Assembly (NCBI GenBank): GCA_040386695.1
Contig: JAZKFB010000004.1
Span: forward strand, 65,742 to 129,741
Direction of reading: 5' to 3'
Length of the DNA: 64,000 bases
Origin: Verrucomicrobiota bacterium
Lineage (GTDB): Bacteria > Verrucomicrobiota > Verrucomicrobiia > Verrucomicrobiales > V1-33
Shown: one piece after another, positions 9,025 through 27,165 of the stretch
Position numbering within the stretch: position 1 is the stretch's first letter
Layout: every line of letters starts with the position of its first letter
The notes under the pieces: model-generated
What the model saw: the letters and a program-made list of their open reading frames with translations, nothing else
Databases searched by the model: none
Told to the model about the DNA's origin: nothing
Made by a program: the position numbers and the translations under genes

Positions 9025-9132
9025 TTCCCCGATTCCTGGCTCCGGACACTTTGGCATCAGCTGGCATCCAAACGCCGCCATTTTCAATTCCCTGCTTGGG
9101 AAAACCGGAGGCCTGCGCATGGTCGCCGGGGA

Positions 9133-10368: not shown

Positions 10369-10677
10369 ATGAATACCCCCGCTCCTCAAAATTCCGCCCC
10401 GGAGGTTTCCGTGAATATTGGCTCCTCCGATGGGGAGAAATGCGAAATTCAAATCGATCCCAAATCCGCCCAGTCATTCATCCGCTTTCTCCTCCACCGG
10501 GAGATCCGGCTGCTGCCGCCGGAGGGCGGAGTGGCGCGGACCCTTGACTGGCAGGTGGAAACTCAGGGCGTGCCGCCGCGGCATTCCTTTTTTGCCTACA
10601 CCACGGCGGACAACCTGAAGGATCTGACCGCCGAGTGGAAAGCATCGGGGTCGCGGGAGGTGATCGCCGGTCAGTGA
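10369..10677 (+). CDS. small hypothetical protein
   Basis: ATG at 10369 inside ORF 10081..10677. The upstream part of that ORF is Arg/Gly-rich noise. The sequence downstream of the ATG looks globular (KCEIQIDPKSAQSFIRFLLHREI...). Confidence 0.4.
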   Translation: MNTPAPQNSAPEVSVNIGSSDGEKCEIQIDPKSAQSFIRFLLHREIRLLPPEGGVARTLDWQVETQGVPPRHSFFAYTTADNLKDLTAEWKASGSREVIAGQ

Positions 10678-10871
10678 GTCCATCGTGCGGTCTCCCTCCG
10701 GCCTGATTTTTCAGGCGCGCGGAGGGAAAGAGGAAATTCAGAGTCACCGTGTCACGCGGCCGGCCTGAATTTCCAAGGGAATGTGCAACGGGATACTCCC
10801 CCGCGGAAGCCGGCATGACACCGGCCCCGCGGGATTCCCGTTCCGCTGGAATCCAAACTCATTCCCTATCC

Positions 10872-11618
10872 ATGAAATTCACGATGCTCCGCCTCCTGGC
10901 CCTGGCCGGCCTGCTTTCCTCCGTAAAGCTCTCGCCGGCCTGCGAAATCAAGCTGAACAATGATCCCGCTCTGGCAAAATCACCCAGCCTGAAAATCAAA
11001 AACGTCTCCGTCGAATACAAAGCGGACCTGGATGTCATGGTGTTCAGCATGGATCTGGAGGGCGAGGCCGGCAAAACGACCCCGAAAGCGGCGGGCCAGC
11101 TTGATGGCGCCCCGGTGCTGGCGTACGTTTTTCCCACCTCGCTCAAAGCCGCCGATGTGGGCATGGGCAAAGCGGAGGGGATTGTCGCTCTGGCCATCAC
11201 CTCGCATCCCGATTTTGATGACACCCCGCTCTGGGACGAGAACGCGAACGGGGATTACAACGACGACAAAAAGATCTGGCACACCCACTGGGCGCTGCTG
11301 GTCAAGGACGACCGGGTGCCCGGCGGCCTGTCCGTGAAGGAGTTCAAAAAGGGCGATAAAAAGGTGGTTCTGCCGCCCACGAACTGCGGTATGCCCATGT
11401 ATCTGGATGCCGCCGGGCATTCCGTTGTGGAACGCGGCAACACCATCCGCGCGGTGGTTCCGGCTTATTTTCTGCACCACAAAACGAAGTTCAGCTTCGA
11501 CGGCGTGGCCTGTTACATGCAGGTCAACACCTCCTGCATGTCCCGTCCGATGCTGGGGGTTTACGAGGTTTATTCCGTGGCCTCGAAGGATCTCAGCCTG
11601 CCTTACAAAACCAAATAG
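10872..11618 (+). CDS. secreted hypothetical protein
   Basis: ATG at 10872 gives a signal peptide MKFTMLRLLALAGLLSSVKLSPA. 248 aa with no family recognised. Confidence 0.65.
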   Translation: MKFTMLRLLALAGLLSSVKLSPACEIKLNNDPALAKSPSLKIKNVSVEYKADLDVMVFSMDLEGEAGKTTPKAAGQLDGAPVLAYVFPTSLKAADVGMGKAEGIVALAITSHPDFDDTPLWDENANGDYNDDKKIWHTHWALLVKDDRVPGGLSVKEFKKGDKKVVLPPTNCGMPMYLDAAGHSVVERGNTIRAVVPAYFLHHKTKFSFDGVACYMQVNTSCMSRPMLGVYEVYSVASKDLSLPYKTK

Positions 11619-11640
11619 CGCCCGCGCCCGGAATTCAGGC

Positions 11641-13422
11641 TCAGCTGTTGCCGGAGAAAGCGGCCTGCCATTTTTCCAGAGCCGTCCGCAGCTCGGCGGC
11701 GCGCAGGGGTTTGGTCAGATAATCGTTCATGCCGGCGGCCAGGCACTTTTCCCGGTCGCCGGCCATGGCGTGGGCTGTCAGGGCGATGATGTGCACGGGT
11801 AGATGCGGAAAATCCCGGCGGATGCACCTTGCGGCCTCATACCCGTCCATCTCCGGCATGCCGCAGTCCATGAGAATGATGTCGTAGGGACTCCTTTTCA
11901 GCGCCTCCACCGTTTCGACCCCGTTGGCCGCCACCACCGCCTGATACCCCATCTTCTTGAGCTGCAGCAGCGCCACTTTCTGATTCACGGTGTTGTCCTC
12001 CGCCAGCAGAATCCGGGCTTTGCGCGGTCCGGCGGAATCGGCCGGGGAAAGATCGGGGATGGTGATGCCTGTTTCCCGCCCCGGGTGGCTTTCGCGGGGA
12101 ATGCCCGCCGGGCCGGCAGCCGCCGGGGAGTTACCGGGAGGGAAGCGGGCGGTGAACCAGAACCGGGAGCCCTCGCCGGGAACACTCTCCAGCCCCATCT
12201 CCCCGCCCATCATCCCCACCAGCCGGCGTGAAATGGCCAGCCCCAGTCCGGTGCCGCCGTATTTCCGCGTGGTGGAGGCGTCCGCCTGACTGAAGGGCTG
12301 GAAAAGCCGTATTTTCTCCCCGCCGCTGATGCCGATCCCGGTATCCCGCACCTCAAATCTCAGAACCGCCGCCCCGGCATCGCCGGAAATCCGGGACACG
12401 CCGAGCACCACTTCACCCCGGGGCGTGAATTTCACGGCATTGCTCAGCAGATTCAGCAGCACCTGCCGGAGCCGGCCCTCATCCCCCCGGATCCGCGGCG
12501 GAATGGCCGGATGCAGTTCACTGGACAGCCGGAGGCCTTTGGACCCCGCGGCTCCGCTCACGATCTCCAGAGTGGTTTTCACAAGCTGCCGGAGATCAAA
12601 ATCCGAGTCCTCAAAAGTGAGTTTTCCAGCTTCGATTTTGGAGAAATCCAGAATGTCGTCGATCAGGGTCAGCAGCAGCTCGCCACTGTGGCGGATGGTT
12701 TCCGCGAAGCTGCGCTGCTCGGATGAAAGTTCGGTGTCCAGCAGCAGGCCCGCCATGCCCAGCACTCCATTCATGGGAGTCCGGATTTCGTGACTCATCG
12801 TGGCCAGAAACTCACTTTTGGCCCGGTTGGCTGATTCCGCGGCCTCCTTGGCCTGTTTCAGCTCCTGCTCCGCGCGGCCCCATCCGGCCTCCACCACCTG
12901 CAAAGCCTCCAGATCCCGCCGGTGGCGCTCGGCGGCCAGCCGCAGGGACACTTCTCCGGTCACCTGCCCGGCCAGGGCCGTCATGATGCCGATGTCCTGC
13001 TGCGTCCATGTCCGGGGCTCGAAATCCATGACGCAGAAAGCCCCCACCGGCGCTCCCTTCTCAGCGTAAACGGGAACTCCGAGGTAGGAGCGGACACCGA
13101 ATTCGCTGACCGCCGGATTATCCTTCACCATGGGATGCACCCGGGCATCCTCCACCACCAGTGTCTCGGAAAAAGCCACCACATACTTGCAGAATGAGTG
13201 ACTCAGGGGAGTCCCGCGGTCCGTGGCCGGAGCCCCCGTGAGGCCGCACTGGCTTTTGAAAAACTGGCGGTCCCTGTCAATCACCGAGATCAGCGCCACC
13301 GGCACCCCGAGCACCTGGCGGGCCAGGGCCGTGAGGGTGTCAAACGCCGGCTCAAGCGCGGGATCCAGCAGAAATGGCGGGGGGGCAGGGCCTTTTTTTA
13401 CCGAATTTTCCTGTGCCAGCAT
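11641..13422 (-). CDS. cytoplasmic hybrid sensor histidine kinase (GAF - HisKA - HATPase_c - receiver)
   Basis: H-box [16 protein letters not shown] boxes [18 protein letters not shown] and GGTGLGLAI. Receiver domain [12 protein letters not shown]...[12 protein letters not shown]...TKP. The N-terminal region is GAF-like, and no TM segment is present. Confidence 0.9.
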
Positions 13423-13571: not shown

Positions 13572-15857
13572 TCAGGGAATTCTTTTCACCCGGTAGAAGA
13601 CTCTGGAAGTGCCCGCGGGCAGCGTGGTGTCCGTGAAACCGGCGGTGGCCCCGGCGGCGGTGACATTGGGCGTCAGGTCGTCCCATCTGGAAAAATCAGC
13701 CGTGCGCTGGACGGTGTAAACCGCCCCGGCCGTGGAGGGCCATGCTAGGGTGACCTGCCCGGCGGCGGGGCCCCGGACCAGCGAGGAGATCTCAAAGCCG
13801 GCGGAGACGGGCGGCGTGCCCGCGCCGTTGATCATGATGCTTTGGATCTCGCTCCGGCTGAGGGCTTTTTTATAAATGGCGATGTCGTCCAGCTTGCCGT
13901 CAAAAGGAAAACCCAGACCGTTGTCGTCGCCCGCTCCGAGATGGAGATTCAGGGAATAATTCGGAGTGTACTGCGTGGGGGCCGACCGGGAGGTGTCCAC
14001 AGCCGCGCTCTCGCCGTTGACCCACAGCGTTTTGGTGTCCGTGGCGGCATCGTAGGTGATGGCCAGATGCGTCCAGGAGCCGACCACCACGGCCGGACCG
14101 CTGACATCATCCCAGTTCACCACCCCCTGCCCTGTCCAGAACGCCCAGCGCCCGCCATCGGCGTTGTAAAGAATATAACCGTTGGTCTCTCCGCCGCCGC
14201 CGTGGACGCGGCTGGTGACCGGCGAGGCATATCCGCTGGTGCCGTCGGCTTTGGCCCACAGCGTGACCGTGAAGCTGGTGGGATTCAGCAGCGCGTCGAA
14301 AGGCACCTCAATGTGCCCGCCTTCCGTGAAATCCGCGGCGGCGCCGGTCGCGGCATTGGCTCCCGCCTCGGTGAAACTCACCGCGCCCGGAGCCGTGACC
14401 ACGCCGTTGAACCCGTTGCCGCTGGCGTCATCGGCATTCGCGTCCAGCGGCCACCACGCGACCAGCGGCTTGGCCACCGGCACCTCCGCGTGCAGCACCA
14501 CCGTGATATTCGGCGTCAGCGGATCATCGGTGCTGACCAGCATCCGGCTGACAAAGGATCCGTCCTCCAGCAGCGGATCAAACACCACCTCCACCGTCCC
14601 GGTCGCGCCGGGAGCGAGGGTTTCCGGGAATTTGGTGACCGTGAAGGCCGCCATATCCGGACCGGCGGGCGTGACGGCACTGACATTCAGAGGCAGGGCC
14701 GCCCCGTCGTTGCGCAGGGTGAAAGATTTGGTCAGCGTGCTGGTGCCGGCCGGAAGCGTTCCGAACTCCAGCCGCTCCGTCAGGGACACGACGCTGGGAT
14801 CGTGAATGAACCCCGTGACCGTCACCGGCTTCACGGGATTCACCGCTGAATTGCTGGTCAGCTCCAGAATGGTCTCCACCGCTCCGGAAACCCCGGCGGG
14901 ATTGAACGAGATTCTGACCACGCCCGTGCCGCCCGCGGCAATGGGACCCGGCAGGCTGACCACGGAGAAACTGGCCGCATTGCCTCCGCTGAAAGCCGCC
15001 GCCGTGATATTCAGCGCTTTGGTGGCCCCGCCATTGTTCAGGGTGATGTCAAAGGTCTGGACGGCCCCGGTGAGCGTGAGCGGCCAGGGACTTGGCACCA
15101 GCAGATTCGGATCGGTGGAGGTGTCGGGCTTGATGCCGTTGGTCATGACCTCCTGCACCTGCGCCTCCGTCAGGGCATTGTCCCAGAATCCGATATCATC
15201 CATGCGGCCATCCCAGTAAAAGTCCCCGCCCAGATCCGAGCCCGAGCCGAAATGCATGGCCCGCAGCACATTGGCGGAGATGCCGATGACATCATTCAGA
15301 ACCACCACGCCATTGAGCAGCATTTTCCGCGTGGTCGTGTCCGCATCGTAGGTGATGGCCACATGCGTCCAGGCATTCACGGCCACGGGTCCGGCATCAC
15401 GGTTGTTCCACTGTCCCGACGAGCCATTATTGCCCGCCCAGAAGGTCCAGTTGCCGGCGGCGTCATTGTAAATCATGGGACCGTTGGAGGTCGTGCCGTT
15501 GTCCTCGCGGTTGGTGAATGGCGAGCGGTAGGCCCCGCCGCCCGCCGCTGTGGGGAACGCCCAGAAAGCCAGGCTGAAACTGCCGGACCCGTTCTCGGCC
15601 TGGGTGCCGGGATTCAGGTCCGGGGTATAGGGAATGTCGATGTGGCCCGGACCCGGGAAGTCGGCGGAGGAGCCCGTTTTGCCATTGGCTCCGGATTGTC
15701 CGAACGTCACCGTCCCCACCACCGTGCCGTTGTGGCCGTTGCCGGTGGCGTCCAGCGCATTGGCGTCCAGCGGCCAGTGGGCCACCAGTCCGGCGGAGGC
15801 TCCGACTATTGACATCACGGTAAACCAGCAGGAAAACACCAGGAATTTCATAGGCAT
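13572..15857 (-). CDS. secreted protein with two LamG-like domains, Ig-like middle repeats and a C-terminal FYRV module
   Basis: Signal peptide after the ATG at 15857/15851 (MKFLVFSCWFTVMSIVGASAG). There is a duplicated LamG signature (LVAHWPLDANALDATGNGHNG / LVAWWPLDANADDASGNGFNG; WTHVAITYDA / WTHLAITYDA). Start position is uncertain (15917, 15857 or 15851). Confidence 0.8.
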   Translation of the reverse strand: MPMKFLVFSCWFTVMSIVGASAGLVAHWPLDANALDATGNGHNGTVVGTVTFGQSGANGKTGSSADFPGPGHIDIPYTPDLNPGTQAENGSGSFSLAFWAFPTAAGGGAYRSPFTNREDNGTTSNGPMIYNDAAGNWTFWAGNNGSSGQWNNRDAGPVAVNAWTHVAITYDADTTTRKMLLNGVVVLNDVIGISANVLRAMHFGSGSDLGGDFYWDGRMDDIGFWDNALTEAQVQEVMTNGIKPDTSTDPNLLVPSPWPLTLTGAVQTFDITLNNGGATKALNITAAAFSGGNAASFSVVSLPGPIAAGGTGVVRISFNPAGVSGAVETILELTSNSAVNPVKPVTVTGFIHDPSVVSLTERLEFGTLPAGTSTLTKSFTLRNDGAALPLNVSAVTPAGPDMAAFTVTKFPETLAPGATGTVEVVFDPLLEDGSFVSRMLVSTDDPLTPNITVVLHAEVPVAKPLVAWWPLDANADDASGNGFNGVVTAPGAVSFTEAGANAATGAAADFTEGGHIEVPFDALLNPTSFTVTLWAKADGTSGYASPVTSRVHGGGGETNGYILYNADGGRWAFWTGQGVVNWDDVSGPAVVVGSWTHLAITYDAATDTKTLWVNGESAAVDTSRSAPTQYTPNYSLNLHLGAGDDNGLGFPFDGKLDDIAIYKKALSRSEIQSIMINGAGTPPVSAGFEISSLVRGPAAGQVTLAWPSTAGAVYTVQRTADFSRWDDLTPNVTAAGATAGFTDTTLPAGTSRVFYRVKRIP

Positions 15858-16008
15858 GAACGCGCCGCGTCCGGCATGGACGTTGGCGGGCGGCTCCAGC
15901 TTCGCCGCAGAAGCCATGCCTTTCGATTTTAAATCTCCGCAGACGCGTAGATTCCTGATCCTGAGCCTTTTGCGCAGAACGGCGGAGTCCTGTGATCCAC
16001 CGTGTTTG

Positions 16009-17340
16009 TCAGGAAACTTTGATGCGCTGAGCGACGGGAATATACCGGTTCAGCCAGGCCAGGAAAAAGAAAACCCGCAGCCGCCACCGCACCGCGAACG
16101 ACAGCCTGGTGCGTCCCGCCAGCACCGCGTTGATCGCGCAGACCATGCCGAAACGGTTATAGGGCTGGAAGAAGATCTGGGCGAAGTGGTTTTTGTAAAA
16201 GTTCCCGATGAATTCCCAATACTGGGAAATGCGCCGCCGGTTGTCCCTCTCATAACGCTTCATGCCGGAGGTCATGGACTGGCCGGAGGCGAGGGCCTCG
16301 TGCACGGCCTCCGCGCCCTGCTTGCCGCTGGTCATGGCCAGCATCACGCCGCTGGAGAAGACGGGATCGATGAACCCGGAGGCGTCGCCGATACGCACCA
16401 GACGGGGCGCCACCAGCTTTCCGTTGCGGTAGGAAAAATCCGTCAGCACCCGCAGCGGATCTTTGGCGGCGGCCTGGGTGAAGCGGTCGCCGACCACTTG
16501 GGTCGTGCGGACGGCGTCGTGAAAAATTTTGTCAGGATCCTTTCCCAACGCTTGGAATTCCCCCCGGTCCAGCACCAGACCCACACTCGTTTTGTTGGCC
16601 TCCAGGGGAATCATCCAGAACCAGGAGTTCTCGCGGCGCACCACCAGAATGTCCCCGTATTCCTCGCCCTGCGGCATGTCCACGTTTTCGAAATGGCCGA
16701 AGATGGCCATCTTTTTGTGTCCGGGATAAAACTCCCGCAGGGACGCCTGATTGGCCGTCAGATTCGACAGCCCGCTGGCGTCCATGAGAAAGCCGGCGGA
16801 AACCTCGTGCTCCATGCCGTCGGCGGCGCTCCGGTATTTCACGGTCACGCCGTCGGCGCTGATTTTGTGGGAGATCACCAGCGCCTCCTCCCGGACCCCG
16901 GCCCCGCATTCCCGCGAATGCTTCAGCAGGAGATCATCAAATTTCGACCGCTCCACCTGCACCGCCGTCGGGAATTCCGTGAACGAGCCGTCCGAAAAAT
17001 CCAGCCGCGTTTTCTGCGGGCCATTGCCCATGAGAAACTGGGCCCCGCGCTTCACCATGAACCCTGCGGATTCAATCTTCGGCCACACCCCGAGGCTGTC
17101 GAAAATCGCGCGGTTATACGGCAGCAGGGATTCCCCGATGTGAAAACGCGGGAACTTCTCCTTCTCCAGCACCAGCACCCGCCGCCCCGCTTTGGCCAGC
17201 GTGGTGGCCGCCGTGGAGCCGGCCGGGCCTCCTCCGATAATGACGACGTCCCAGGAGGTTTTTTCAGTGTTTTCGGAAGTCGGGGAAGGCATGGGGAGGC
17301 AGAAATTTATCAGGCTGGGCGGCTCGGAATGAGGCTCCAT
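16009..17340 (-). CDS. flavin-dependent halogenase-like FAD oxidoreductase, paralog 1
   Basis: Motifs: VVIIGGGPAGS, FPRFHIGESLLP, VKRG, WFWMIP (WxWxIP), GDASGFIDPVFSSGV. Hydrophobic C-terminal tail. An alternative ATG lies at 17292. Confidence 0.85.
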   Translation of the reverse strand: MEPHSEPPSLINFCLPMPSPTSENTEKTSWDVVIIGGGPAGSTAATTLAKAGRRVLVLEKEKFPRFHIGESLLPYNRAIFDSLGVWPKIESAGFMVKRGAQFLMGNGPQKTRLDFSDGSFTEFPTAVQVERSKFDDLLLKHSRECGAGVREEALVISHKISADGVTVKYRSAADGMEHEVSAGFLMDASGLSNLTANQASLREFYPGHKKMAIFGHFENVDMPQGEEYGDILVVRRENSWFWMIPLEANKTSVGLVLDRGEFQALGKDPDKIFHDAVRTTQVVGDRFTQAAAKDPLRVLTDFSYRNGKLVAPRLVRIGDASGFIDPVFSSGVMLAMTSGKQGAEAVHEALASGQSMTSGMKRYERDNRRRISQYWEFIGNFYKNHFAQIFFQPYNRFGMVCAINAVLAGRTRLSFAVRWRLRVFFFLAWLNRYIPVAQRIKVS

Positions 17341-17461
17341 CCTTAGTCATGGAAACTCTGTCCGCCAGTCAAAGCCTGGAGATTCCTGATACCAATTCGG
17401 CATCACTGCGATTTCAAAATATTATTTCCGATATCAGCGCGGCCGGCTTACAAGGTTGCAA

Positions 17462-18736
17462 ATGAACGACAACTCTTTCGACGTGATTGTGATCGGTGGC
17501 GGCCCCGCAGGCTCCAGTTCCTCGGCGATTCTGGGTGAGGCGGGGCACCGTGTGCTGCTCCTGGAGCGCGAAAAGTTCCCGCGCTACCACATTGGCGAGT
17601 CGCTGATCCCCTTCACCTACTTCCCGCTGGAGCGGCTGGGTCTGGTGAAGCGCATGCAGGAATCGAACTTCGTCAAAAAGTACAGCGTGTGTTTTGTCCC
17701 GCCCCATGGCCGGACCAGCCAGCCGTTCTATTTCTTCAACAGTTATGACAAGGACACGGTCGCCCAGACCTGGCAGGTGCTGCGCTCGGAGTTTGACGAG
17801 ATCCTTCTCAACAACGCCCGCGACAAAGGCGTGGAGGTTCATGAGCAGACCAAGGTAGACGAGCTGCTGCGCGATGACACCGGCCGCGTGATCGGCGTCC
17901 GCGCCCTGCATCACGATGGCACCGTGAAGGAATATCACGCCAAAATCACTCTCGACTGCACGGGCAAGGAGGCCTTCACCACCGTGCGCAACGGCTGGCG
18001 CGTCCGCGATCCCTATCTCAACAAAGTGGCGGTCTGGACTTATTATAAAGGCTCCCGCCGCGAGCCGGGCATCGACGAGGGACAGACCACGGTCGCCTTT
18101 GTAAAGGACAAGGGCTGGTTCTGGCACATTCCCCAGGCCAATGACATGGTCAGCGTCGGCGTGGTGGCGGAAGGCAAATATCTTTCCCGCGACGGCGTGC
18201 GGAGCCCGGAACTCATCTTCAAACGCGAGGTCGAGGAAAATCTCTGGGTCAAGGAATCCCTCTCCCACGGCGAGCAGACCGGACAGTATTACATCACCAG
18301 CGAATACACCCATCACGCCAAACACTGCGGCAGCGAGGGCCTGCTGCTGGTCGGTGATGCCTTCGCTTTCCTCGACCCCGTGTTCAGCAGCGGCCTCATG
18401 TTCGCCATGAAAAGCGGCGTCATGGCCGGCGAGGAGGTCAGCAAGGGCCTCAGGGAGGGCAATCTGAAACCCGGGCGTTTCGCCGAATACGGCCGCTTCC
18501 TGCGCGATGGCGTGGAGAACATGCGCAAGCTGGTTTACGCCTTCTACAATCCCGACTTCAGCTTCGGCAAACTCATCCGCAACCACCCCGACGCCCAGAC
18601 CTCCGTCACCGACTGCCTCAGCGGCGATGTGAACAAGGACTACTCCGTCCTCTGGGACCAGATCCGCGAGCTGGTCCCGCTGCCGGAGGAATTGCCCCTC
18701 GGCGAGCCGCTGGTCCGCGAGGAGGCGGCGGCATAG
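17462..18736 (+). CDS. flavin-dependent halogenase-like FAD oxidoreductase, paralog 2
   Basis: ATG at 17462 (the track start at 17456 is a TTG). Motifs: VIVIGGGPAGS, FPRYHIGESLIP, VKKY, WFWHIP, GDAFAFLDPVFSSGL. Confidence 0.85.
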   Translation: MNDNSFDVIVIGGGPAGSSSSAILGEAGHRVLLLEREKFPRYHIGESLIPFTYFPLERLGLVKRMQESNFVKKYSVCFVPPHGRTSQPFYFFNSYDKDTVAQTWQVLRSEFDEILLNNARDKGVEVHEQTKVDELLRDDTGRVIGVRALHHDGTVKEYHAKITLDCTGKEAFTTVRNGWRVRDPYLNKVAVWTYYKGSRREPGIDEGQTTVAFVKDKGWFWHIPQANDMVSVGVVAEGKYLSRDGVRSPELIFKREVEENLWVKESLSHGEQTGQYYITSEYTHHAKHCGSEGLLLVGDAFAFLDPVFSSGLMFAMKSGVMAGEEVSKGLREGNLKPGRFAEYGRFLRDGVENMRKLVYAFYNPDFSFGKLIRNHPDAQTSVTDCLSGDVNKDYSVLWDQIRELVPLPEELPLGEPLVREEAAA

Positions 18737-18752
18737 ACACCTATCACAGAAG

Positions 18753-18777
18753 CGGGAGCACAGGCGTCTCGCCTGTG
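18753..18777. repeat. left copy of a 25-bp inverted repeat (itself a hairpin)
   Basis: CGGGAGCACAGGCGTCTCGCCTGTG is the exact reverse complement of 19278..19302. It contains an internal 8-bp stem CACAGGCG/CGCCTGTG. Confidence 0.85.
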
Positions 18778-18825
18778 TGCTTGGGCTTGATCATTTTTCG
18801 TGGTTTGAGGCCTTCCTGAAAGAAT

Positions 18826-18904
18826 GGGCACCTCTAAAAACCCCGGAATTCGGCCAGATTTCCCCGCTGACCGGCGTCGGAAAAGGTGGTTTTTAGAGGT
18901 GCCC
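18826..18904. repeat. 17-bp perfect inverted repeat (long hairpin, 45-nt spacer)
   Basis: GGGCACCTCTAAAAACC (18826-18842) and GGTTTTTAGAGGTGCCC (18888-18904), read directly from the sequence. Confidence 0.8.
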
Positions 18905-18957
18905 GAATGAGGCACAGCTTGCATACAAAAACTTCCTTTTTCAAAAATCCGTGGTCC

Positions 18958-19206
18958 ATGTCCCTTCAAGTTTGCCCCCGATGCCAAAAGAAAGCGTTCA
19001 CATGGTCCGTGGACGAAGAGATGTCGAAGTTCACTATTTGGCATTGTGGCGATTGTGGCTACGAATCGTCTGAGGACGAAAAGCAGGAAATGACCTGCTG
19101 TCATTGCGGCCAGGAGCGCGGCAGTTTATTACTGAAAGATGACGAAGGATTTCACCGGTGGTGCTTTGGTTGCGGCCTGTTTGAACCCACGAGTGAGTCA
19201 CTTTGA
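18958..19206 (+). CDS. small double zinc-ribbon protein (four CxxC motifs)
   Basis: MSLQVCPRCQKK...HCGDCGYE...TCCHCGQE...WCFGCGLFEP gives two CxxC...CxxC pairs. ATG at 18958, with alternatives at 18907 or the track start 18886. The local DNA is lower in GC. Confidence 0.5.
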   Translation: MSLQVCPRCQKKAFTWSVDEEMSKFTIWHCGDCGYESSEDEKQEMTCCHCGQERGSLLLKDDEGFHRWCFGCGLFEPTSESL

Positions 19207-19277
19207 ACAGCATCAACAGAAAACGCCCGGGCAGCGGCGGCATCAGCATTCTTTTAAAATCCTCACACACAGCAACG

Positions 19278-19302
19278 CACAGGCGAGACGCCTGTGCTCC
19301 CG
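19278..19302. repeat. right copy of the 25-bp inverted repeat
   Basis: CACAGGCGAGACGCCTGTGCTCCCG is the reverse complement of 18753..18777. Confidence 0.85.
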
Positions 19303-19329
19303 TCTCAAGCCTATGACGTGTAATCTGAC

Positions 19330-20853
19330 ATGAAACGCGCCCCGATTCTCTATCTCATCATCCTCACTCTGGCTGTCGTTCCGATCGCCGCCATTCTGCA
19401 TTTCGGTCAGTCCCGGTCAGCTCCGGAAGCGCAACCCGCCGTCATTGCGGTCAGCCACGCCGCAGCCGCCCAGCCCGCGGCACCCGCAGCGGCAGCGGCA
19501 GCTCACGCGGCCAACGGCGTGTCAGCCGGGACCACAATGCCAGCGCCGGCGCCATCGGCGGTGGATTCCATGCTGGCCGCGCTCCGCGAGAATTTCCACA
19601 CGCCGCTCAGCTATCTGTTTCTACAGCTGGTGATCATCCTCACGGTTTCGCGGATGATGGGGAAAATCTTCACGCGCCTCGGCCAGCCGGCGGTGGTGGG
19701 GGAAATGGCGGCGGGCATTCTGCTGGGACCGTCGCTCTTCGGACTGCTGGCGCCGGACCTGTTTCAGTCCGTGTTTCCCCCCAGCTCCTTCGGCAATCTG
19801 AAACTGCTGAGCCAGGTGGGCGTGTGCTTTTTCATGTTCGCCGTGGGCATGGAGCTGAATGTGAACCACGTCCGCAGCAAAGCCCCCTTTGCGGTGGTTG
19901 TCAGCCACTCCGGCATTGGGATCTCCTATCTGCTGGGGGTGATTCTCGCCTGGTTTCTGTATCAGGACATGGCCGCGCCGGGCACGCGTTTCCTTCCCTT
20001 CGCGCTCTTCATGGGCATCTCCATGAGCATCACCGCCTTTCCGGTGCTGGCGCGCATCCTCCAGGACCGGGGCATGAGCCGCACCCGGCTGGGGAACACC
20101 GCCATCACCTGCGCGGCGGTGGATGATGTCACCGCCTGGAGCATCTTCGCCTTTGTCGTGGCCATGGCCCGGACCACGGGCATGGCCGGCTCCGCTCTGA
20201 ATCTGCTGCTGGTGGGCCTCCTGACCGCAGTGATGCTGCTGATGGTGAAACCCGGGCTGATCCGGTGGATCGGACCGCGTCAGCTTCAGAACGAGACTCC
20301 GTCAAAGGACACCATCGCGCTGGTCATCTGCATCGTCGTGTCGGCGGCGTTCTGCACCGAACTGATCGGCATCCACGCCCTCTTCGGCGCCTTTCTGGCC
20401 GGAGCCATCATGCCGGACACCCAGGGCTTCCGCCACAAGCTGGCGGTGCGCATTGAAAATTTCTGCTCCATCCTGCTTCTGCCGCTTTTCTTCGCCTTCA
20501 CCGGCCTGAGGACCCAGATCGGCCTGCTGGGCGACTGGCAGGGCTGGCTGCTGTGCCTCGGCATCATCGCCGTGGCCACCCTGGGGAAACTCGGCGGCAG
20601 CGCCGTGACCGCGCGGCTCACAGGCATGAGCTGGAGGGATTCCCTGCAGCTCGGCGCGCTCATGAACACCCGCGGTTTAATGGAACTGATTGCCTTGAAT
20701 ATTGGCTACGATCTGGGCATTCTCCCGCCGCGCATCTTCACCATGCTCGTGATCATGGCTTTGGCCACGACCATGCTGACCGGTCCGCTGCTCACCCTGT
20801 TTGGCTCCCGCCAGCCCGTCCCCGACGGCTTGCCGGAACCCGCGCCGCGCTGA
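19330..20853 (+). CDS. CPA2-family cation:proton antiporter (Kef/NapA-like)
   Basis: 507 aa and polytopic. The segment LQLVIILTVSRMMGKIFTRLGQPAVVGEMAAGILLGPS and the overall TM pattern are typical of the Na_H_Exchanger/CPA2 family. Confidence 0.9.
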   Translation: MKRAPILYLIILTLAVVPIAAILHFGQSRSAPEAQPAVIAVSHAAAAQPAAPAAAAAAHAANGVSAGTTMPAPAPSAVDSMLAALRENFHTPLSYLFLQLVIILTVSRMMGKIFTRLGQPAVVGEMAAGILLGPSLFGLLAPDLFQSVFPPSSFGNLKLLSQVGVCFFMFAVGMELNVNHVRSKAPFAVVVSHSGIGISYLLGVILAWFLYQDMAAPGTRFLPFALFMGISMSITAFPVLARILQDRGMSRTRLGNTAITCAAVDDVTAWSIFAFVVAMARTTGMAGSALNLLLVGLLTAVMLLMVKPGLIRWIGPRQLQNETPSKDTIALVICIVVSAAFCTELIGIHALFGAFLAGAIMPDTQGFRHKLAVRIENFCSILLLPLFFAFTGLRTQIGLLGDWQGWLLCLGIIAVATLGKLGGSAVTARLTGMSWRDSLQLGALMNTRGLMELIALNIGYDLGILPPRIFTMLVIMALATTMLTGPLLTLFGSRQPVPDGLPEPAPR

Positions 20854-20931
20854 GTTCCTCCTCTCCTTCCTCCATTTCTCTGATTCCTCGAAACTCACGT
20901 CTTCTCCTCCCCGCTTTTCGTTTTCCCAGCT

Positions 20932-22494
20932 ATGAACAATGAGGCTCCCGGCGGCAGCGCCAGTTATGATGTCGTGGTCATCGGCGGCGCGCTTTCCGGT
21001 GCCGCCACCGCCACCCTGCTGCTGCGCCACAATCCGGGAATCCGCGTGCTCATTGTCGAAAAATCCGCCACCCTCGGCCGGCGGGTTGGCGAGGCCACAG
21101 TGGAGATCAGCGGCTACTTCATGAGCCGCGTGCTGGGCATGACCCAGTATCTCAACGAGAACCATCTTGTGAAGCAGGGCCTGCGGTTCTGGTTCAAAAA
21201 CGAGGAGGTCACCAACGTCTCCGAAGCCAGCGAACTGGGCGCGAAATACCTCTCCCGCATTCCCTCCTACCAGCTCGACCGCGCCACCTTCGACGAGGAG
21301 GTCCTCCGCCGCGCCGTCGCCGCCGGAGCCGAGCTGATCCGCCCCGCCACCGTCTCCAATGTGGAGCTGAACGACGGCGGCCCGCAGTCGATGGAGATCA
21401 AACACGGCGACAGCACCCGGAAAATCACCACGCGCTGGATCGTCGACGCCTCGGGGCTCGCCGCCGTGCTGGCCCGCAAAAACGGCTGGTGGAAATCCAA
21501 CACCGAGCACCCCACGGCCGCCGCCTGGTCGCGCTGGAAAGGCGTCAAGGACTGGGACAGCCGCGAGCTGGCGGTGAAATATCCCGCCTGGTCCCGCGCC
21601 GTTTACGGCATCCGCAACACCGCCACGAATCACATCATCGGCGACGGCTGGTGGAGCTGGTGGATTCCTCTCAAAGGCGGCGATGTCAGCGTCGGATTCG
21701 TCATCGACCAGCGCATCGCCAGCTTCACCGAGGAGGGCGGCAAGCTCGGCGACCGCATCAAAGCTTTCCTCATGAAACACCCCGTCGCCCGCGAAATGCT
21801 GGCCGACGCCACCTTCTGCGAGGAGGACATGCACTGGCGGAAAAATCTGGCCTACTACAGCACCACCTTCGCCGGCGACGGTTTTGTGCTCGTGGGCGAC
21901 GCCGCCGCGTTCATGGATCCCTTTTACAGCCCCGGCATGGACTGGATCTCCTTCACCACCAGCAGCGCCGCCAATCTCATCACCCAGCAGCGCAAAGGCA
22001 AACCCATGGCCGGACGGGTCGTGGATTATAACCGCGATTTCCGCGTCAGTCACCGCCGCTGGTTCGAGTCCCTCTACAAGGACAAATACGAATACATGGG
22101 CGAATTCGACCTCATGAGCCTCGCCTTCCGCCTCGATCTCGGGCTGTATTACTGGGGCGTGGTCGAAGTGCCGTTCAATGAGGGCGAGGAGGCGCTTTTC
22201 GCCCCGCCCTTCTCCCCGCCCAGCGGCCGCCTTTTCGCGGCGCTCATGAGCACCTACAACCGCCGCTTCGCCAAAATCGCCCGCCGCCGCCGCCGCACCG
22301 GCACCCTCGGCCGCGCGAACGCCGGCAAGCGCCGCCTCATCCCCGGCTTCATGCTCAAGCGCAGCAATATGCTCACCCTCTTCCCCATGCTCGCCGAATG
22401 GGCCTGGCTGGAAATCCGGGAAGGCTGGCGCAGCTGGCTCGACGATTCCTCCCCCTACCCGGCTCCGGCCCCCCAGGCGAAAGCCAGCGCCTGA
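20932..22494 (+). CDS. flavin-dependent halogenase-like FAD oxidoreductase, paralog 3 (divergent)
   Basis: Motifs: VVVIGGALSGA (variant dinucleotide motif), RRVGEATVE, VKQG, WSWWIP, GDAAAFMDPFYSPGM. Has a long C-terminal extension with a basic and amphipathic tail. Confidence 0.8.
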   Translation: MNNEAPGGSASYDVVVIGGALSGAATATLLLRHNPGIRVLIVEKSATLGRRVGEATVEISGYFMSRVLGMTQYLNENHLVKQGLRFWFKNEEVTNVSEASELGAKYLSRIPSYQLDRATFDEEVLRRAVAAGAELIRPATVSNVELNDGGPQSMEIKHGDSTRKITTRWIVDASGLAAVLARKNGWWKSNTEHPTAAAWSRWKGVKDWDSRELAVKYPAWSRAVYGIRNTATNHIIGDGWWSWWIPLKGGDVSVGFVIDQRIASFTEEGGKLGDRIKAFLMKHPVAREMLADATFCEEDMHWRKNLAYYSTTFAGDGFVLVGDAAAFMDPFYSPGMDWISFTTSSAANLITQQRKGKPMAGRVVDYNRDFRVSHRRWFESLYKDKYEYMGEFDLMSLAFRLDLGLYYWGVVEVPFNEGEEALFAPPFSPPSGRLFAALMSTYNRRFAKIARRRRRTGTLGRANAGKRRLIPGFMLKRSNMLTLFPMLAEWAWLEIREGWRSWLDDSSPYPAPAPQAKASA

Positions 22495-22842
22495 TTCCTT
22501 CGGTAATCAAAAACGAGCCCATCGGTGGCATGCGCCCGCCGTTGTGCATGAATCCTGCTTTGCACCTGCGAAGAGACTTCCGCAGGCGGCGTTTACCGTT
22601 TTTTTGAAACCGGGCAAGTCCGAGAGCTTGGATAAAGGGCGGAAATTGGGGCCGACCTGATTTCACAATTTGCTCCTGCGATTTAACCTTGCTTTTATTT
22701 TGTGGGTTTTCCGGTATTTTTCTCTTTTCAGAGGCCTAATTAATGAAATCCTGATGAAAAATTGTGCATTTTGCCGTTTAAAAATGTATTAAACAGGCAT
22801 TCCTTCTTCGAGAGAATAAGAATTGAAGCTTTTTTCTGAATA

Positions 22843-25800
22843 ATGCGTATGATTATTCAGTTTGGACAACCTGAACGGAATAAACCCCTTATCCAGTCTC
22901 CCGTCATGAGAAAAGTTATACCGAAATTCTTAATTCACAGGCGCATACCGGAATCACAGTCAGGACTTTCAAGCGGAGCGCCTCCGCAGGCCGTCTGGCT
23001 TGCGGCCCTCGCCTCCCTTGCCGCAGGCCCCCTTCAGGCAGCCCTCACTCCCTACTGCTGGATGCGGCTGGGGGAGACGGGCAGTGTGAGAACGGATTCC
23101 AGCGGCGCGAACCGCACCTTCACTTCCGCCTTTTCAACTTCCTCGACGGGCGCCGGCCTCGGAGGGCAGGATTCCTCCGTCATTGTGCCCACCGGAGTCG
23201 GCGGCCCACTCGGCGCGGCGGGCGGTCCGGTCAGCGCCATCTCCTCCCGCTGGGGATCCCTGAACACCCGGACTTCGGGCATGTGGATTGAAGGACCCAA
23301 CGGCGCCGTGGGAGTGGACCAGTGGAATCTGCCCGCCACCAACTGGGTCATGGAATGCTGGCTCCTGCCGGTGGAGAATGGCACCACCAAAAGCAGCGGC
23401 TCCAACCAGGCCATTTTCGTCGGAGCGGGGTCCAATAACAATGGCGCACAGGCGGGTGGTTTGAGATTCAGGATTGCCCCCGATCTTGACGTGGATGGAC
23501 TTCCCACCGGACCCCAGACCATTTTCCTGGAGGATATCGCCGCCACCCAGCCGCATCCTCTGAACACTCCGGAAAGCCCCCGCGATCCCATTCCTTTAAG
23601 GGTCGGCACTCCGGTGCCGATGGACACCACCAAATGGATGCATGTGGCCGCCGTGAATGACAATGGTTCGGTGACCTTTTATGTGAACGGAGTGGCCAGC
23701 GGAACCCCGGTCACAGGCACCAGCGCGCCCCACGGATCCCCCACCATCGGCTCCGGTCCCGACACCCGCCTGCCCTTCAATGGTTATCTGGACGAAATCC
23801 GCTTTTCCACCTTTGCCCCCGGCGCCTTTACCGTCAGCGATCTCCTGCTCCGGCCTGCCGGCCCGGCGGTCCTCGCTCAAATGCCGGCCACCCTGTCCGT
23901 GTGGGAAGGCGGGGCCGCTCCTTTTGAAGTGGGAATCGCCTATGATGAAACCGCCACTTATCAATGGAAGCTTGGGGGCGCGCCACTGCCCGGAGCGACC
24001 TCCGCCGAATACCTGCTGAGTTCGGCGGCTCCCGCCAACAGCGCCGGCGTTTACTCCAACGCCATCACCAGCGGCGGGGTGACCGTCACCAGCTCCAATG
24101 CCACTCTGACAGTCGTTCCGGTCAAAACGGCGGACACCAATTTCTACCGGACCTCCGTCCAGGCCGAAGCCTCGCTGCTGGCCTTTTTCCCCGTGGACGG
24201 CGACACCGGCACCACGGTCACCAACACCAAAAACGCGGCCCTCAACGGCACCCTCGCGGCAGGCGTTTCCTACGACGGCCGCACCGACCGCTCACTGGGT
24301 CAGCGGGCGCTGCGGTTCAAAGGAAATGCCGGCGTCGATCTGCCGGCCAATGCCACTCTGGAGTTTCCCGGCGGCACCGGCACCATTGAAGCCATCGTTT
24401 ATCTCCAGCCTGCGGGCAGTCAGGGAGAAGCCACTCTCTTCTCCCTCGCGGATGGTGATCTCTCTTATTACAAAGTCAGCGCGGGGCTCGGCGGAGGTTC
24501 CCTGACCTTTACCAATGACGCCCTGGAACAGGCCGTGACCTGGTCCGTGCCCGCAAATCTCCGGAACCGCTTTGCCCACGTCGCCTTCACGTTTTCCAGC
24601 GTCCCGCCCGTCGCCATCGGCGATCCCGTCACCTATGCGGTCACCGCTTACGTTGACGGAGAATCTCTCGGTGCCAAACCCTTTGTCTCGTTTGGGAACA
24701 ACCCGGGATTGCCGGCGCATATCGGCTCGGCCGGTCTGAACGGCGATGAACTCGCCCAGTCTCCCTGGCAGGGAACCATTGATGAGCTGGCGGTTTACAG
24801 CACCGCCCTGCCCGCCACCACCATCGCCGTCCACAATTCCCGCTTCAAATTCGGCACCGCGGTTGCCCCGCCGGAAATCACCACTCAGCCCACCGGCACC
24901 CGGAATCTGCTTGCCGGCGGCGCTCCCGCCTTCCGTGTGGTCAGCACCGGCACCGCCCCCCTCAGCTATAAATGGCAGCGGAACGGCGCGGATATCAGCG
25001 GCAATCCCACGGCCACCACCTCCACTCTGGTCCTGAACAACTCCACGGCCGCCATGTCCGGCGCCTACACCGTGACGGTGACCAATCCCCAGGGATCGGA
25101 CTCCAGCGATCCTTTCACCGTGAATTTCGCCGCCCCTCCGGACACTTATTCCGGATTCGTGCTCGCGGACAATCCCACCGCTTACTGGCGTGTGAATGAA
25201 GCCTCCGGCACGGTCATGAAAGACTACGCTGGCGGACTGGATGGAACGTATTCCACCACGGCCACCCTCGGCACCGCCGCCCAGGCCTCCATGGCCCCGG
25301 ACACCGCCCTCCGGCTCACGGCCACCGGCACTCCCATTTCCAATGCCACGGTGCCCTTCACCCCGGTGCTCAATCCCAGCGGAGCGTTCTCCCTGGAATG
25401 CTGGGTGAAACCCACGGCCTCCGGGGACACCGCCCGCGCCGTGATCTCCGCTCAGAACCGCAATGCCGGGCGCTCCGGTTACGTCCTCTACCAGGGCCTC
25501 AACGCGGGAGCCGGCTGGGAAGTCCACCTCGGCGTCGCGGAAAGCGTGAAATTCATCCAAAGCGAGGTCCCCGCCGTCGCGGGCCGCTGGGACCATGTGG
25601 TCATCACCTGGAACGGCTCCGACACCGCCCGGCTTTATGTCAATGGCGTCGAGGAGGCCACCCACGTGAACGCCACCGCCGCCGCCGCCGAGCAGGGACC
25701 TTTCCGTCCCAATCTCGAAGCGCCTCTGGAAATTGGCACCCGATTCGGCGGGGGCATCCCCTGGGACGGCACGGTCGATGAAATCGCCTTCTACAACCAG

Positions 25801-27165
25801 GCTCTTACCCTGGAGCAGGTCCGCAAGCACCAAAGCATCGCCTGGGTGCCCGCCACCATCACGCAGGCACCACCCGCCACCGCCACCGCTCTGGAAGCGG
25901 GGAACCTGACCCTCACCGCGCAGGTGAGCGGCTTCCCCAATACCTACCAGTGGATGAAAAACGGCGTCGCCCTGGAAGTGGATGCCGCCCATTACCCGCA
26001 GGGAGTGACCTCCCCCTCGCTGGTCATCGCCGGCGTCGTCCAGGCGGACGGCGGAGCTTACCAGCTGGTGATCACGAACCCTCTGGGCAACCAGAGCACC
26101 GCAAATACCACGGTCACTTTCGCTGCGGACACCAGCCCTCCCTCAGTGGCCTATGCCACAGGTGATGGCAGTCTGCGCCGGGTGCGGGTGGGTTTTAACC
26201 GTGCGGTCACCCCCGAAACCGCCGGTCTCGCCGCCAACTACACCCTGACCGGCGGCCTCAAGGTCAGCAGCGTGGTTTTGACGGCCGGGGCCTCCGTGGT
26301 GGATCTGATCCTGACCAGTCCCATGACTCCCGGCGCCACCTATGGTCTGAGTGTCAGCGGTGTCAGAGATGAGCGCATCAACCATAATCTCATCGCGGCC
26401 AACCTCACCCCATTCAGCGGTCTGAGTCTCACTCCGGGAGTTCTCTCTCTTGATTTCTATGGAGGTATCACAGGGAACAACGTGGAGGATCTGAAAGGCG
26501 ACACCCAGTTCCCGGACGGGGTTTACACCAGCACCACGCTGACCAGCTTCAGCACCCGGGCACTGACCGGCGGGGACCTGGCCACTAATCCGGCCTACGC
26601 CGCCCTCGGCCTGGGTGGCAACTACGGCACTCATGTTTACGGCTGGATCACACCGGCGGTGAGCGGGAACTATACCTTCTTCCTCAACAGCGATGACGGC
26701 TCGGAACTCAATCTGAGCACCGACAGCAATCCCGCGAACGCTGATATGATCGCCTACATGTCGGTGTGCTGCACAGGCTGGAAGGAACCGGCGGCGAGCG
26801 TGGTGGAGACCTCCTCCCCCATCGCTCTGGTGGCCGGGAAAAGCTATTACATCGAAGCTTACCAGAAGGAAGGCGGCGGCGGCGATTACCTCGAAGTCGC
26901 CTGGCGCCTCGCGGGCGACACCACCGCGGTGGGCGCGCTTCAGCCCATTCCGGCCAGCGTCCTCTCCGGCTATGCCACCATCCCGCTGGTCGGAATGGGG
27001 CAGCCCGTGGTGGCCAATGGCCAAGTGGCCATTACCTGGGGTGGAACGGGCAAACTGCAGCAGTCCGACGATCTGATTATCTGGGCCGACGTGTCCGGCA
27101 ATCCCGTCAGCCCTTATGTGAGCCCAGTCGCCGGACGCAGGTTCTACCGCCTGGCTGTCCCCTGA
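22843..27165 (+). CDS. giant secreted adhesin-like protein (LamG-like x3, Ig-like repeats, Big-like, PA14-like, C-terminal FYRL module)
   Basis: 1440 aa. LamG-type signatures (WMHVAAVNDNGSVTFYVNG, WDHVVITWNGSDTARLYVNG). Ig-like YQW/YKW repeats. PA14-like segment (GNYTFFLNSDDGSELNLS...YYIEAYQKEGGGGDYLEVAWR). An alternative ATG lies at 22906. Confidence 0.85.
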   Translation: MRMIIQFGQPERNKPLIQSPVMRKVIPKFLIHRRIPESQSGLSSGAPPQAVWLAALASLAAGPLQAALTPYCWMRLGETGSVRTDSSGANRTFTSAFSTSSTGAGLGGQDSSVIVPTGVGGPLGAAGGPVSAISSRWGSLNTRTSGMWIEGPNGAVGVDQWNLPATNWVMECWLLPVENGTTKSSGSNQAIFVGAGSNNNGAQAGGLRFRIAPDLDVDGLPTGPQTIFLEDIAATQPHPLNTPESPRDPIPLRVGTPVPMDTTKWMHVAAVNDNGSVTFYVNGVASGTPVTGTSAPHGSPTIGSGPDTRLPFNGYLDEIRFSTFAPGAFTVSDLLLRPAGPAVLAQMPATLSVWEGGAAPFEVGIAYDETATYQWKLGGAPLPGATSAEYLLSSAAPANSAGVYSNAITSGGVTVTSSNATLTVVPVKTADTNFYRTSVQAEASLLAFFPVDGDTGTTVTNTKNAALNGTLAAGVSYDGRTDRSLGQRALRFKGNAGVDLPANATLEFPGGTGTIEAIVYLQPAGSQGEATLFSLADGDLSYYKVSAGLGGGSLTFTNDALEQAVTWSVPANLRNRFAHVAFTFSSVPPVAIGDPVTYAVTAYVDGESLGAKPFVSFGNNPGLPAHIGSAGLNGDELAQSPWQGTIDELAVYSTALPATTIAVHNSRFKFGTAVAPPEITTQPTGTRNLLAGGAPAFRVVSTGTAPLSYKWQRNGADISGNPTATTSTLVLNNSTAAMSGAYTVTVTNPQGSDSSDPFTVNFAAPPDTYSGFVLADNPTAYWRVNEASGTVMKDYAGGLDGTYSTTATLGTAAQASMAPDTALRLTATGTPISNATVPFTPVLNPSGAFSLECWVKPTASGDTARAVISAQNRNAGRSGYVLYQGLNAGAGWEVHLGVAESVKFIQSEVPAVAGRWDHVVITWNGSDTARLYVNGVEEATHVNATAAAAEQGPFRPNLEAPLEIGTRFGGGIPWDGTVDEIAFYNQALTLEQVRKHQSIAWVPATITQAPPATATALEAGNLTLTAQVSGFPNTYQWMKNGVALEVDAAHYPQGVTSPSLVIAGVVQADGGAYQLVITNPLGNQSTANTTVTFAADTSPPSVAYATGDGSLRRVRVGFNRAVTPETAGLAANYTLTGGLKVSSVVLTAGASVVDLILTSPMTPGATYGLSVSGVRDERINHNLIAANLTPFSGLSLTPGVLSLDFYGGITGNNVEDLKGDTQFPDGVYTSTTLTSFSTRALTGGDLATNPAYAALGLGGNYGTHVYGWITPAVSGNYTFFLNSDDGSELNLSTDSNPANADMIAYMSVCCTGWKEPAASVVETSSPIALVAGKSYYIEAYQKEGGGGDYLEVAWRLAGDTTAVGALQPIPASVLSGYATIPLVGMGQPVVANGQVAITWGGTGKLQQSDDLIIWADVSGNPVSPYVSPVAGRRFYRLAVP

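Follow-up and report, generated by a model that had tools for sequence, protein, structure and literature searches.

Why would a bacterium keep three genes for flavin-dependent halogenase (FDH)-like proteins side by side? This question is raised by a 64-kb stretch of DNA from a Verrucomicrobiota bacterium (hereafter the window), in which the genes H1, H2 and H3 lie together with a gene for a CPA2 cation/proton antiporter. Studies of FDHs have nearly always dealt with tailoring enzymes that are encoded in biosynthetic clusters. In this case, three FDH subfamilies are kept together and strongly conserved across a poorly studied phylum, away from core biosynthetic genes. H1, H2 and H3 are members of the FDH family and are very probably true halogenases, and their genes recur together with the antiporter gene in many Verrucomicrobiota. 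By analogy with distant relatives, we consider it an even chance that H1, H2, H3 and the antiporter constitute a halogenation module, the substrate of which would be an aryl-polyene-type phenolic or a related lipid made elsewhere in the genome.

The large open reading frames (ORFs) of the window were scanned for domains. A scan for H3 relatives with two exact peptide patterns, in which one genome was taken per species, identified 386 genomes that encode such a relative, and synteny was counted in the best 80 of the 386 genome loci, all 80 of which are from Verrucomicrobiota. By HMMER, 446 H3 relatives at E<1e-30 were obtained from 1.8 billion representative proteins. The genome stretches around H3 relatives are labelled L001 to L090, and gene contexts were read on long contigs.

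Membership of H1, H2 and H3 in the FDH family

The H1 gene (16009..17340, minus strand) is a 443-aa ORF of the CndH/CmlS/PltA type, the H2 gene (17456..18736, plus strand) encodes 426 aa from a TTG codon and is of the FasV/CndH type, and the H3 gene (20932..22494, plus strand) encodes 520 aa. The three ORFs are present as claimed in the first-pass annotation of the window, which was made from the sequence alone, with the start codons of H1 and H2 being debatable. NCBI annotates a protein identical to H1 as 427 aa starting from Met17 (~16009..17292), and H2 may start either from TTG at 17456 or from ATG at 17462, the latter being the earlier choice. H1 contains GGGPAGS at 36-42, IGES at 68-71, K97, WFWMIP at 240-245 and GDASGFIDPVFSSG at 318-331. 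H2 contains GGGPAGS at 14-20, IGES at 46-49, K75, WFWHIP at 221-226 and GDAFAFLDPVFSSG at 300-313. H3 contains GGALSGA at 18-24, VGEA at 52-55, K81, WSWWIP at 241-246 and GDAAAFMDPFYSPG at 322-335. All motifs listed in the first-pass annotation, including GDAxxFxDPxxSxG, are therefore found in the three proteins, and the aligned lysine, which had been placed 25-30 aa past the GES/GEA motif, follows the glutamate by exactly 27 residues in each of them.

All three proteins exceed the gathering score of the Pfam family Trp_halogenase (PF04820, 21 bits), with 120.8, 96.9 and 57.5 bits for H1, H2 and H3 respectively. The best NCBIfam model for each of them is the CmlS halogenase. The scores against this equivalog (NF033113) are 232, 193 and 110 bits respectively, which lie below its cut-off of 900 bits, and the match spans only the N-terminal ~355 of the 570 profile positions, the C-terminal winged-helix region being unmatched. 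When compared with proteins of known structure, H1 is closest to CndH (8e-58) and FasV (8zop, 5e-55), followed by ChlB4, CmlS and PltA, while H2 is closest to FasV (8zop, 1.2e-59), CndH (1.8e-52) and CmlS (3.5e-49). The ten best solved relatives of H1 and H2, with E values from 1e-32 to 1e-60, are nine halogenases (CndH, FasV/8zop, ChlB4, CmlS, PltA, Mpy16, wild-type Bmp2, a Bmp2 mutant and RadH) and 3nix, an uncharacterised structural-genomics flavoprotein. H3 is more remote in sequence, and its best solved relative is CmlS (3.4e-22).

The alignments made by HMMER pair K97 of H1 with position 76 of CndH, K81 of H3 with the second lysine of the CmlS motif VKK, K75 of H2 with the aligned lysine of FasV, and the glutamate of the GES motif with E44 of CmlS. 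By our own count of the numbering, position 76 of CndH and the second lysine of VKK in CmlS are presumably the catalytic residues K76 and K71. K97, K75 and K81 are each invariant in 121 sequences, which are the window protein and 120 orthologues for each family. In a wider alignment of 85 H3-like sequences (24-82% identity to H3), G18/G19/G23, E43 (the β2 acid), G53-E54, K81, W241/W243/I245/P246, and G322, D329 and P330 of the GD/DP motif are kept in at least 90% of the sequences. The FAD dinucleotide motif GxGxxG is present in H1 and H2 and takes the variant form GxAxxG (GGALSGA) in H3, the consensus of the wider H3-like family at this site being GGGLAG.

An AlphaFold (AF2) model of H3, built from the 85-sequence alignment, has a predicted local distance difference test score (pLDDT) of 93.2 and a predicted template modelling score (pTM) of 0.91. 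Another H3 model, built from a shallow alignment of 15 sequences, was discarded (pLDDT 54). When the retained model was compared with the PDB by Foldseek, the matches at ranks 1-45 were all classed as halogenases, with 3nix among those listed. The best match is the phenol halogenase PltM, with a template modelling (TM) score of 0.71-0.74 over ~525 columns, and the C-terminal helical domain of H3 is predicted to be PltM-like. PltM is followed by CmlS, 3nix, Bmp2, CtcP, PltA, FasV, RadH, ChlB4, MalA', CndH and Mpy16. A model was made for H3 alone, and the evidence for the fold of H1 and H2 is their ~360-residue alignments to CndH and FasV.

It might be that the three proteins are non-halogenating flavoenzymes (monooxygenases, reductases or LodB/QhpG-like protein modifiers), which act on a core lipid, a quinone or a protein and have retained a halogenase-like scaffold. 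The NCBIfam models for QhpG (134, 115 and 86 bits for H1, H2 and H3, cut-off 240), for the geranylgeranyl-reductase family (GG-red-SF, TIGR02032; 124, 119 and 91 bits, cut-off 158.8) and for LodB (107, 90 and 93 bits, cut-off 400) are indeed matched, and NCBI names the proteins only as 'NAD(P)/FAD-dependent oxidoreductase'. The core-gene-like conservation described below and the variant dinucleotide motif of H3 would fit this explanation as well. However, all these matches lie below their own cut-offs and below the CmlS match, the aligned lysine and WxWxIP vary hardly or not at all, and the first non-halogenase in the fold search, a geranylgeranyl reductase, appears only at rank 46. This explanation is therefore highly improbable. 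Placement in a non-halogenating clade (geranylgeranyl reductases or monooxygenases), one of the outcomes that the first-pass annotation had named as fatal to its proposal, is not found, because the Pfam scores, the solved halogenase relatives, the invariant lysine and the ranking of folds all point to halogenases. The FDH-family identity proposed there is likewise borne out by the agreement of the Pfam threshold, the solved relatives, the conserved Lys, Glu and WxWxIP, and the fold of the H3 model. H3 represents an FDH subfamily without a characterised member, its nearest solved structure being ~20% identical.

Conservation of the halogenase genes and the antiporter gene in Verrucomicrobiota

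The mutual homology of H1, H2 and H3 noticed in the first-pass annotation is real but remote, with 29% identity between H1 and H2 (E 2e-43), 22% between H1 and H3 (2e-17) and 24% between H2 and H3 (2e-23). In contrast, the orthologues of H1, of H2 and of H3 are each 65-89% identical across Verrucomicrobiota (69-89% for H2, from Verrucomicrobium, Prosthecobacter, Brevifollis and Pedosphaera; 66-88% for H3). They are found in Prosthecobacter, Verrucomicrobium, Brevifollis, Luteolibacter, Haloferula, Chthoniobacterales, Pedosphaera/Limisphaerales and many metagenome-assembled genomes. Because the identity to orthologues far exceeds the mutual identity, H1, H2 and H3 appear from these comparisons to be anciently diverged paralogues under strong purifying selection, and not local duplicates. 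A recent tandem duplication, which would have left the three proteins more alike than 22-29%, is ruled out. The hydrophobic or amphipathic C-terminal tail of H1 (WRLRVFFFLAWLN...) is kept in 36 of the 36 H1 orthologues examined. A variant form of this tail is present in a related subfamily, H4, which is H1-like (34-41% identity to H1) and is encoded directly upstream of H3 in about 23 loci.

The clustering of three paralogues, which had been regarded as an oddity of the window, is widespread. The exact order of the window, H1(-) | H2(+) CPA2(+) H3(+), recurs in five loci (L004, L007, L008, L010 and L015), among them that of Brevifollis gellanilyticus NBRC 108608, and the order H2-CPA2-H3 is found in further loci. 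About 30 loci have H1(-)|H3(+) alone, and a divergent arrangement, either H1(-)|H2(+) or H1(-)|H3(+), is kept in about 35. A second FDH-like gene adjoins H3 in 65 of the 80 loci. Sets of two or three H3-like FDH genes also occur elsewhere, in polyketide synthase (PKS) clusters of Nocardia. Unbiased clustering of the ORFs from 83 loci indicates that only the H3, H1/H2-like and CPA2 families recur across the set. No further partner was found by this clustering in more than 12 loci, the remainder being shadow ORFs or lineage-specific neighbours. The only further family plausibly tied to the cluster is a LysR-type regulator with nine close copies, which is a candidate regulator of the module as judged from its position. 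These LysR genes, 60-95% identical mutually, lie near H3, CPA2 or H2 in L009, L027, L031, L036, L037, L041, L043, L069 and L075 (for example, at 11060-11953 of L043), are sometimes divergent from CPA2-H2, and are absent from the window.

The CPA2 gene (19330..20853, plus strand) encodes 507 aa without a KTN/RCK domain. Its product exceeds the threshold of the Pfam family Na_H_Exchanger (PF00999; 203.7 bits against 26.2), scores 154.7 bits against TIGR00932 (cut-off 238.3) and has Thermus NapA as its best solved relative (1.6e-21). The first-pass annotation had treated this gene as merely sitting between the halogenase genes. This does not hold, as a CPA2 gene adjoins H3 in 29 of the 80 loci in at least four gene orders, the proteins being relatives of either the 59-75% or the 37-41% identity type. 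Because CPA2 recurs beside the H3 family across loci, the antiporter is a conserved partner rather than an interruption, and on this genomic evidence it would be counted as a member of the module. In L027, L036, L037, L041 and L043, two CPA2 paralogues (~65% and ~40% identical to that of the window) flank H3 on opposite strands, as exemplified by the genes at 6521-7945 and 9683-10939 of L043. In Prosthecobacter fusiformis (L001), CPA2 is absent from the cluster, and a gene for a voltage-gated ClC channel/antiporter (5333-6796) directly follows H3 on the same strand. A general link to chloride channels was considered and dropped, with ClC following H3 in one of 84 loci, that of P. fusiformis only.

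The conservation of this gene set might also reflect a physiological role, in which hypohalous acid is made or halide is consumed for stress defence, antagonism or halide homeostasis, and CPA2 (ClC in one genome) handles the accompanying ion and proton fluxes. Such a role would explain the core-gene-like conservation of H1, H2 and H3 across orders, and is consistent with the conserved link to CPA2, with the ClC gene of P. fusiformis and with the absence of biosynthetic genes nearby. However, the ClC gene is confined to a single locus, the presence of WxWxIP and of an intact C-terminal domain on the substrate side speaks for the binding of an organic substrate, and the link of the relatives to aryl-polyene genes points to tailoring chemistry. 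We know of no CPA2 member that carries halides. A halide or oxidant module of this kind is thus quite improbable. A broader proposal, that H1, H2, H3 and CPA2 form a self-sufficient physiological system in which membrane halogenation or hypohalite generation is obligatorily coupled to the antiporter, is also unlikely, if somewhat less so. It may be exemplified by a widespread halogenated membrane lipid or by the management of halide or oxidant stress. If it were correct, this would be the first instance of FDHs that have a transporter dedicated to them and a role in primary-like physiology.

Relatives in carrier-protein clusters and the possible substrate

The large ORFs of the window contain no PKS, nonribosomal peptide synthetase (NRPS), carrier-protein or flavin-reductase domain, in agreement with the first-pass annotation. 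Genes for two-component FDHs normally have no adjacent flavin reductase gene. The claim that a carrier-protein context is lacking holds for the window, but not for the H3 relatives of ~40% identity, which lie beside genes for acyl carrier protein (ACP), ketosynthase (KS) and other aryl-polyene functions. The window lacks this context because its lineage has the module in detached form.

Puniceicoccus vermicola (Opitutae, L083; 42% identity to H3) has a typical aryl-polyene cluster, in which the genes for a chorismatase (FkbO/Hyg5), an H1-like FDH (37% to H1), the H3-like protein, ACP, KS, an acyltransferase, an ApeI-like dehydratase, a GT2, a LolA-like protein and an ApeP-like protein follow one another. 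In L084 (41% to H3), genes for two KS, a 4HBT thioesterase, ACP, a ketoreductase and two ApeI-like proteins precede two H3-like genes and a LysR gene. L087, on a 776-kb contig (42% to H3), contains genes for a KS/chain length factor (CLF) pair, a KS, ACP, an H1-type FDH, an adenylate-forming ligase and CPA2. The H1-type FDH of this locus is 39% identical to H1 and has an H1-like C-terminal tail, and its gene overlaps that of ACP; the CPA2 gene product is 40% identical to that of the window and is encoded divergently from the H3-like gene. In L087, the two types of FDH gene, the antiporter gene and the ACP/KS genes are all found together. In L088 (43% to H3), the H3-like gene is followed by genes for an ApeP-like protein and an AMP-ligase. 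Two more distant loci contain type I PKS genes. One of them, from Nocardia rhizosphaerae (L086; 33% to H3), has three tandem H3-like genes (8001-13217; 603, 565 and 572 aa), followed by thioesterase and type I PKS genes and preceded by a SARP regulator gene, and looks like an uncharacterised cluster for a multi-halogenated polyketide. In the other (L090; 35% to H3), type I PKS, carbamoyltransferase, MATE transporter and thioesterase genes are found. L085 and L089 (36-45% to H3) have no clear cluster. In known xanthomonadin clusters, halogenase genes lie beside a KS/CLF pair, and xanthomonadins carry 0-2 bromine atoms (PMC3691225).

An aryl-polyene-type substrate is likely because these relatives are embedded in aryl-polyene-type (type II PKS/fatty acid synthase-like) clusters, and a phenolic, possibly membrane-associated substrate is plausible. 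A general cellular flavin reductase would supply FADH2, which would react in the enzymes with O2 and halide to give hypohalous acid. The acid would be captured by the lysine (K97 of H1, K75 of H2 and K81 of H3) near the GES/GEA glutamate, and the Lys/Glu pair would direct the halogen onto an electron-rich aromatic carbon. These steps are those of established FDH chemistry. The halogen would be placed on a hydroxyphenyl head group, either that of an aryl-polyene tethered to ACP or that of a related phenolic polyketide lipid, and each of the three enzymes may serve a different position or stage of halogenation. Such lipids are located in the membrane, and the hydrophobic tail of H1 may keep this enzyme next to it. 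The antiporter probably aids the chemistry through the balance of ions, pH or halide, although this role is a guess.

Several observations weigh against an aryl-polyene-type substrate. No aryl-polyene core gene (ACP, KS/CLF, ApeI/ApeP-like, adenylate ligase or chorismatase) is present in the window, and in the 82 closest loci the 8-10 kb around H3 contain no recurrent ACP, KS or other aryl-polyene gene. The aryl-polyene-linked relatives are only ~40% identical to H3 and 37-39% to H1, and the transfer of a substrate from them is uncertain because they are so distant. No H2 orthologue was seen in the aryl-polyene-linked clusters of these relatives. Tailoring enzymes of secondary metabolism are rarely as conserved as H1, H2 and H3, with their 65-89% identity between orders. 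The replacement of the second glycine of the dinucleotide motif by alanine in the H3 clade bears on the putative binding of FAD. Finally, PltM, the closest structural match of H3, acts on a free phenol and not on a carrier-bound substrate.

This last observation raises the alternative that H1, H2 and H3 are PltM-like halogenases of a diffusible small phenol, either of the phloroglucinol/resorcinol type or an environmental aromatic, the product of which would be a signal, an antimicrobial or a detoxified compound. The module would then be self-contained and need no PKS of its own, with the antiporter acting in export or in ion homeostasis. This alternative is consistent with the match of H3 to PltM over its full length, PltM having been crystallised with phloroglucinol, and with the lack of a carrier-protein gene near the module in all 82 loci. 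The LysR gene adjacent in nine loci would fit the sensing of a small molecule. Oceaniferula flavus, a yellow verrucomicrobium, is reported to possess a type III PKS cluster as well as an aryl-polyene cluster (PMC9865893); the former would agree with a free phenol and the latter with an aryl-polyene-type substrate. On the other hand, the nearest relatives of H1 and H2 are CndH, PltA, Mpy16 and Bmp2, an FDH gene abuts or overlaps the ACP gene in the more distant relatives, and the structural identity between H3 and PltM is only 19%. CndH, PltA, Mpy16 and Bmp2 use carrier-bound substrates. A free phenol is therefore an unlikely substrate, and an aryl-polyene-type phenolic lipid remains the one that we favour.

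Comparison with known systems indicates which features of the module are new. The 'variant B' phenol/pyrrole FDHs (CndH, CmlS, PltA, Mpy16, Bmp2 and FasV) match H1 and H2 at E values from 1e-40 to 1e-60 over ~360 residues and share with them GxGxxG, the GES glutamate, the aligned lysine, WxWxIP and GDAxxFxDPxxSxG, and the size of H1 and H2 (426-443 aa) fits two-component enzymes. In contrast to them, H1 and H2, which are equivalogs of none of the variant B FDHs, are encoded away from PKS/NRPS genes and are 65-89% conserved across a phylum, and H1 has a conserved hydrophobic C-terminal tail. PltM (the Pseudomonas phloroglucinol halogenase) and CtcP (the tetracycline 7-halogenase), both of which act on phenolic rings, match the whole H3 model including its C-terminal helical domain, with TM scores of 0.70-0.74. 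H3 differs from them in its low identity (18-20%), its GxAxxG motif and the pairing of its gene with an FDH-like gene and often with CPA2. While the H3-like and H1-like relatives (~37-43%) lie inside clusters of the aryl-polyene/xanthomonadin/flexirubin type, the module stands apart from core aryl-polyene genes both in the window and in the 82 loci closest to it. No halogenated aryl-polyene from Verrucomicrobiota is reported in the searchable literature, which likewise contains nothing specific that links halogenases to Verrucomicrobia genera, antiporters or arylpolyenes. Tailoring FDHs are thus a known type, and what is new here is a detached set of three subfamilies with a conserved antiporter, not a new category.

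Na+/H+-antiporter genes (StaN, Dbv35) recur in glycopeptide antibiotic clusters (PMC11727664, PMC8291499). An antiporter gene is kept there beside the genes for a halogenated product, as CPA2 is kept here, the two being likened by gene presence and not by sequence; the glycopeptide systems differ in that they belong to Actinobacteria and to an NRPS pathway. These antibiotics are chlorinated, and the role of the antiporter in their clusters is unexplained. By this analogy, the glycopeptide antiporters are a possible precedent for the link between the halogenases and CPA2.

If the aryl-polyene lead is correct, many Verrucomicrobiota would make unreported halogenated phenolic membrane pigments, and the predicted makers would include cultured Prosthecobacter and Brevifollis and probably Verrucomicrobium, in which only the H2 orthologue is seen. 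For biocatalysis, the module would be a source of new halogenases with complementary regioselectivity. Its repeated link to the antiporter also makes it a convenient system in which to study whether halogenases depend on dedicated ion handling.

The inserted segment and other features of the window

A 550-bp segment with a Zn-ribbon ORF (18753..19302) separates H2 from CPA2. Its ends are formed by the two arms of a perfect 25-nt inverted repeat (18753-18777 and 19278-19302), which are oppositely oriented copies of a hairpin like those of repetitive extragenic palindromic (REP) elements, each arm being itself a hairpin (CACAGGCG-AGA-CGCCTGTG). The ORF (~18958-19206, plus strand) encodes 82 aa with four CxxC motifs and matches Zn-ribbon profiles only below threshold. 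No counterpart of this ORF is present in 84 related loci, and removal of 18753-19302 leaves a spacer of 43 bp between H2 and CPA2, as compared with 42 bp in L004. The segment is therefore an insertion specific to the window. The first-pass annotation had described it as an inverted-repeat-bounded Zn-ribbon cassette. The repeat, the ORF and the insertion are confirmed, but a mobile cassette is only partly so, with the arms dispersed singly and the ORF without a homologue. In 14 unrelated metagenome contigs the arm is present in single copy and without the Zn-ribbon ORF, so that it is to be regarded as a dispersed REP-like element rather than as the terminus of a cassette.

The divergent intergenic region between H1 and H2 (17341..17455) is presumed to be a bidirectional promoter region and contains a single weak sigma-70-like match (17397-17425, plus strand). 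Promoter and terminator scans around the module were otherwise uninformative, and an Rfam scan of 15500-23000, in which riboswitches including the fluoride type were sought ahead of the antiporter gene, gave nothing credible.

The remaining genes of the window encode giant LamG/Ig proteins, a hybrid histidine kinase, DUF7133/cytochrome proteins, ABC/HlyD transport components and PSD-family proteins typical of the Planctomycetes-Verrucomicrobia-Chlamydiae (PVC) group. Two giant secreted LamG (Laminin_G_3)/Ig/PA14 proteins of 781 aa (13572-15917, minus strand) and 1440 aa (22843-27165, plus strand) flank the module, an arrangement that is not conserved in the related loci, and similar LamG/Ig proteins are encoded at 821-3373 and 5034-6938. 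A PVC-typical pair at 56166-59664 (plus strand) consists of a 670-aa PSD1-5/PSCyt (DUF1592/1588/1585/1587/1595) cytochrome-like protein gene followed by a gene for a DUF1552 (HXXSHH) protein. At 43870-46067 (plus strand), a gene for a Schlafen/AlbA_2 and HATPase_c_4 protein is followed by one for a ParA/AAA_31 ATPase. The GC content at 44-46 kb is 0.543, as compared with ~0.63 elsewhere in the window, and this Schlafen/ParA region may be a mobile or defence-related islet.

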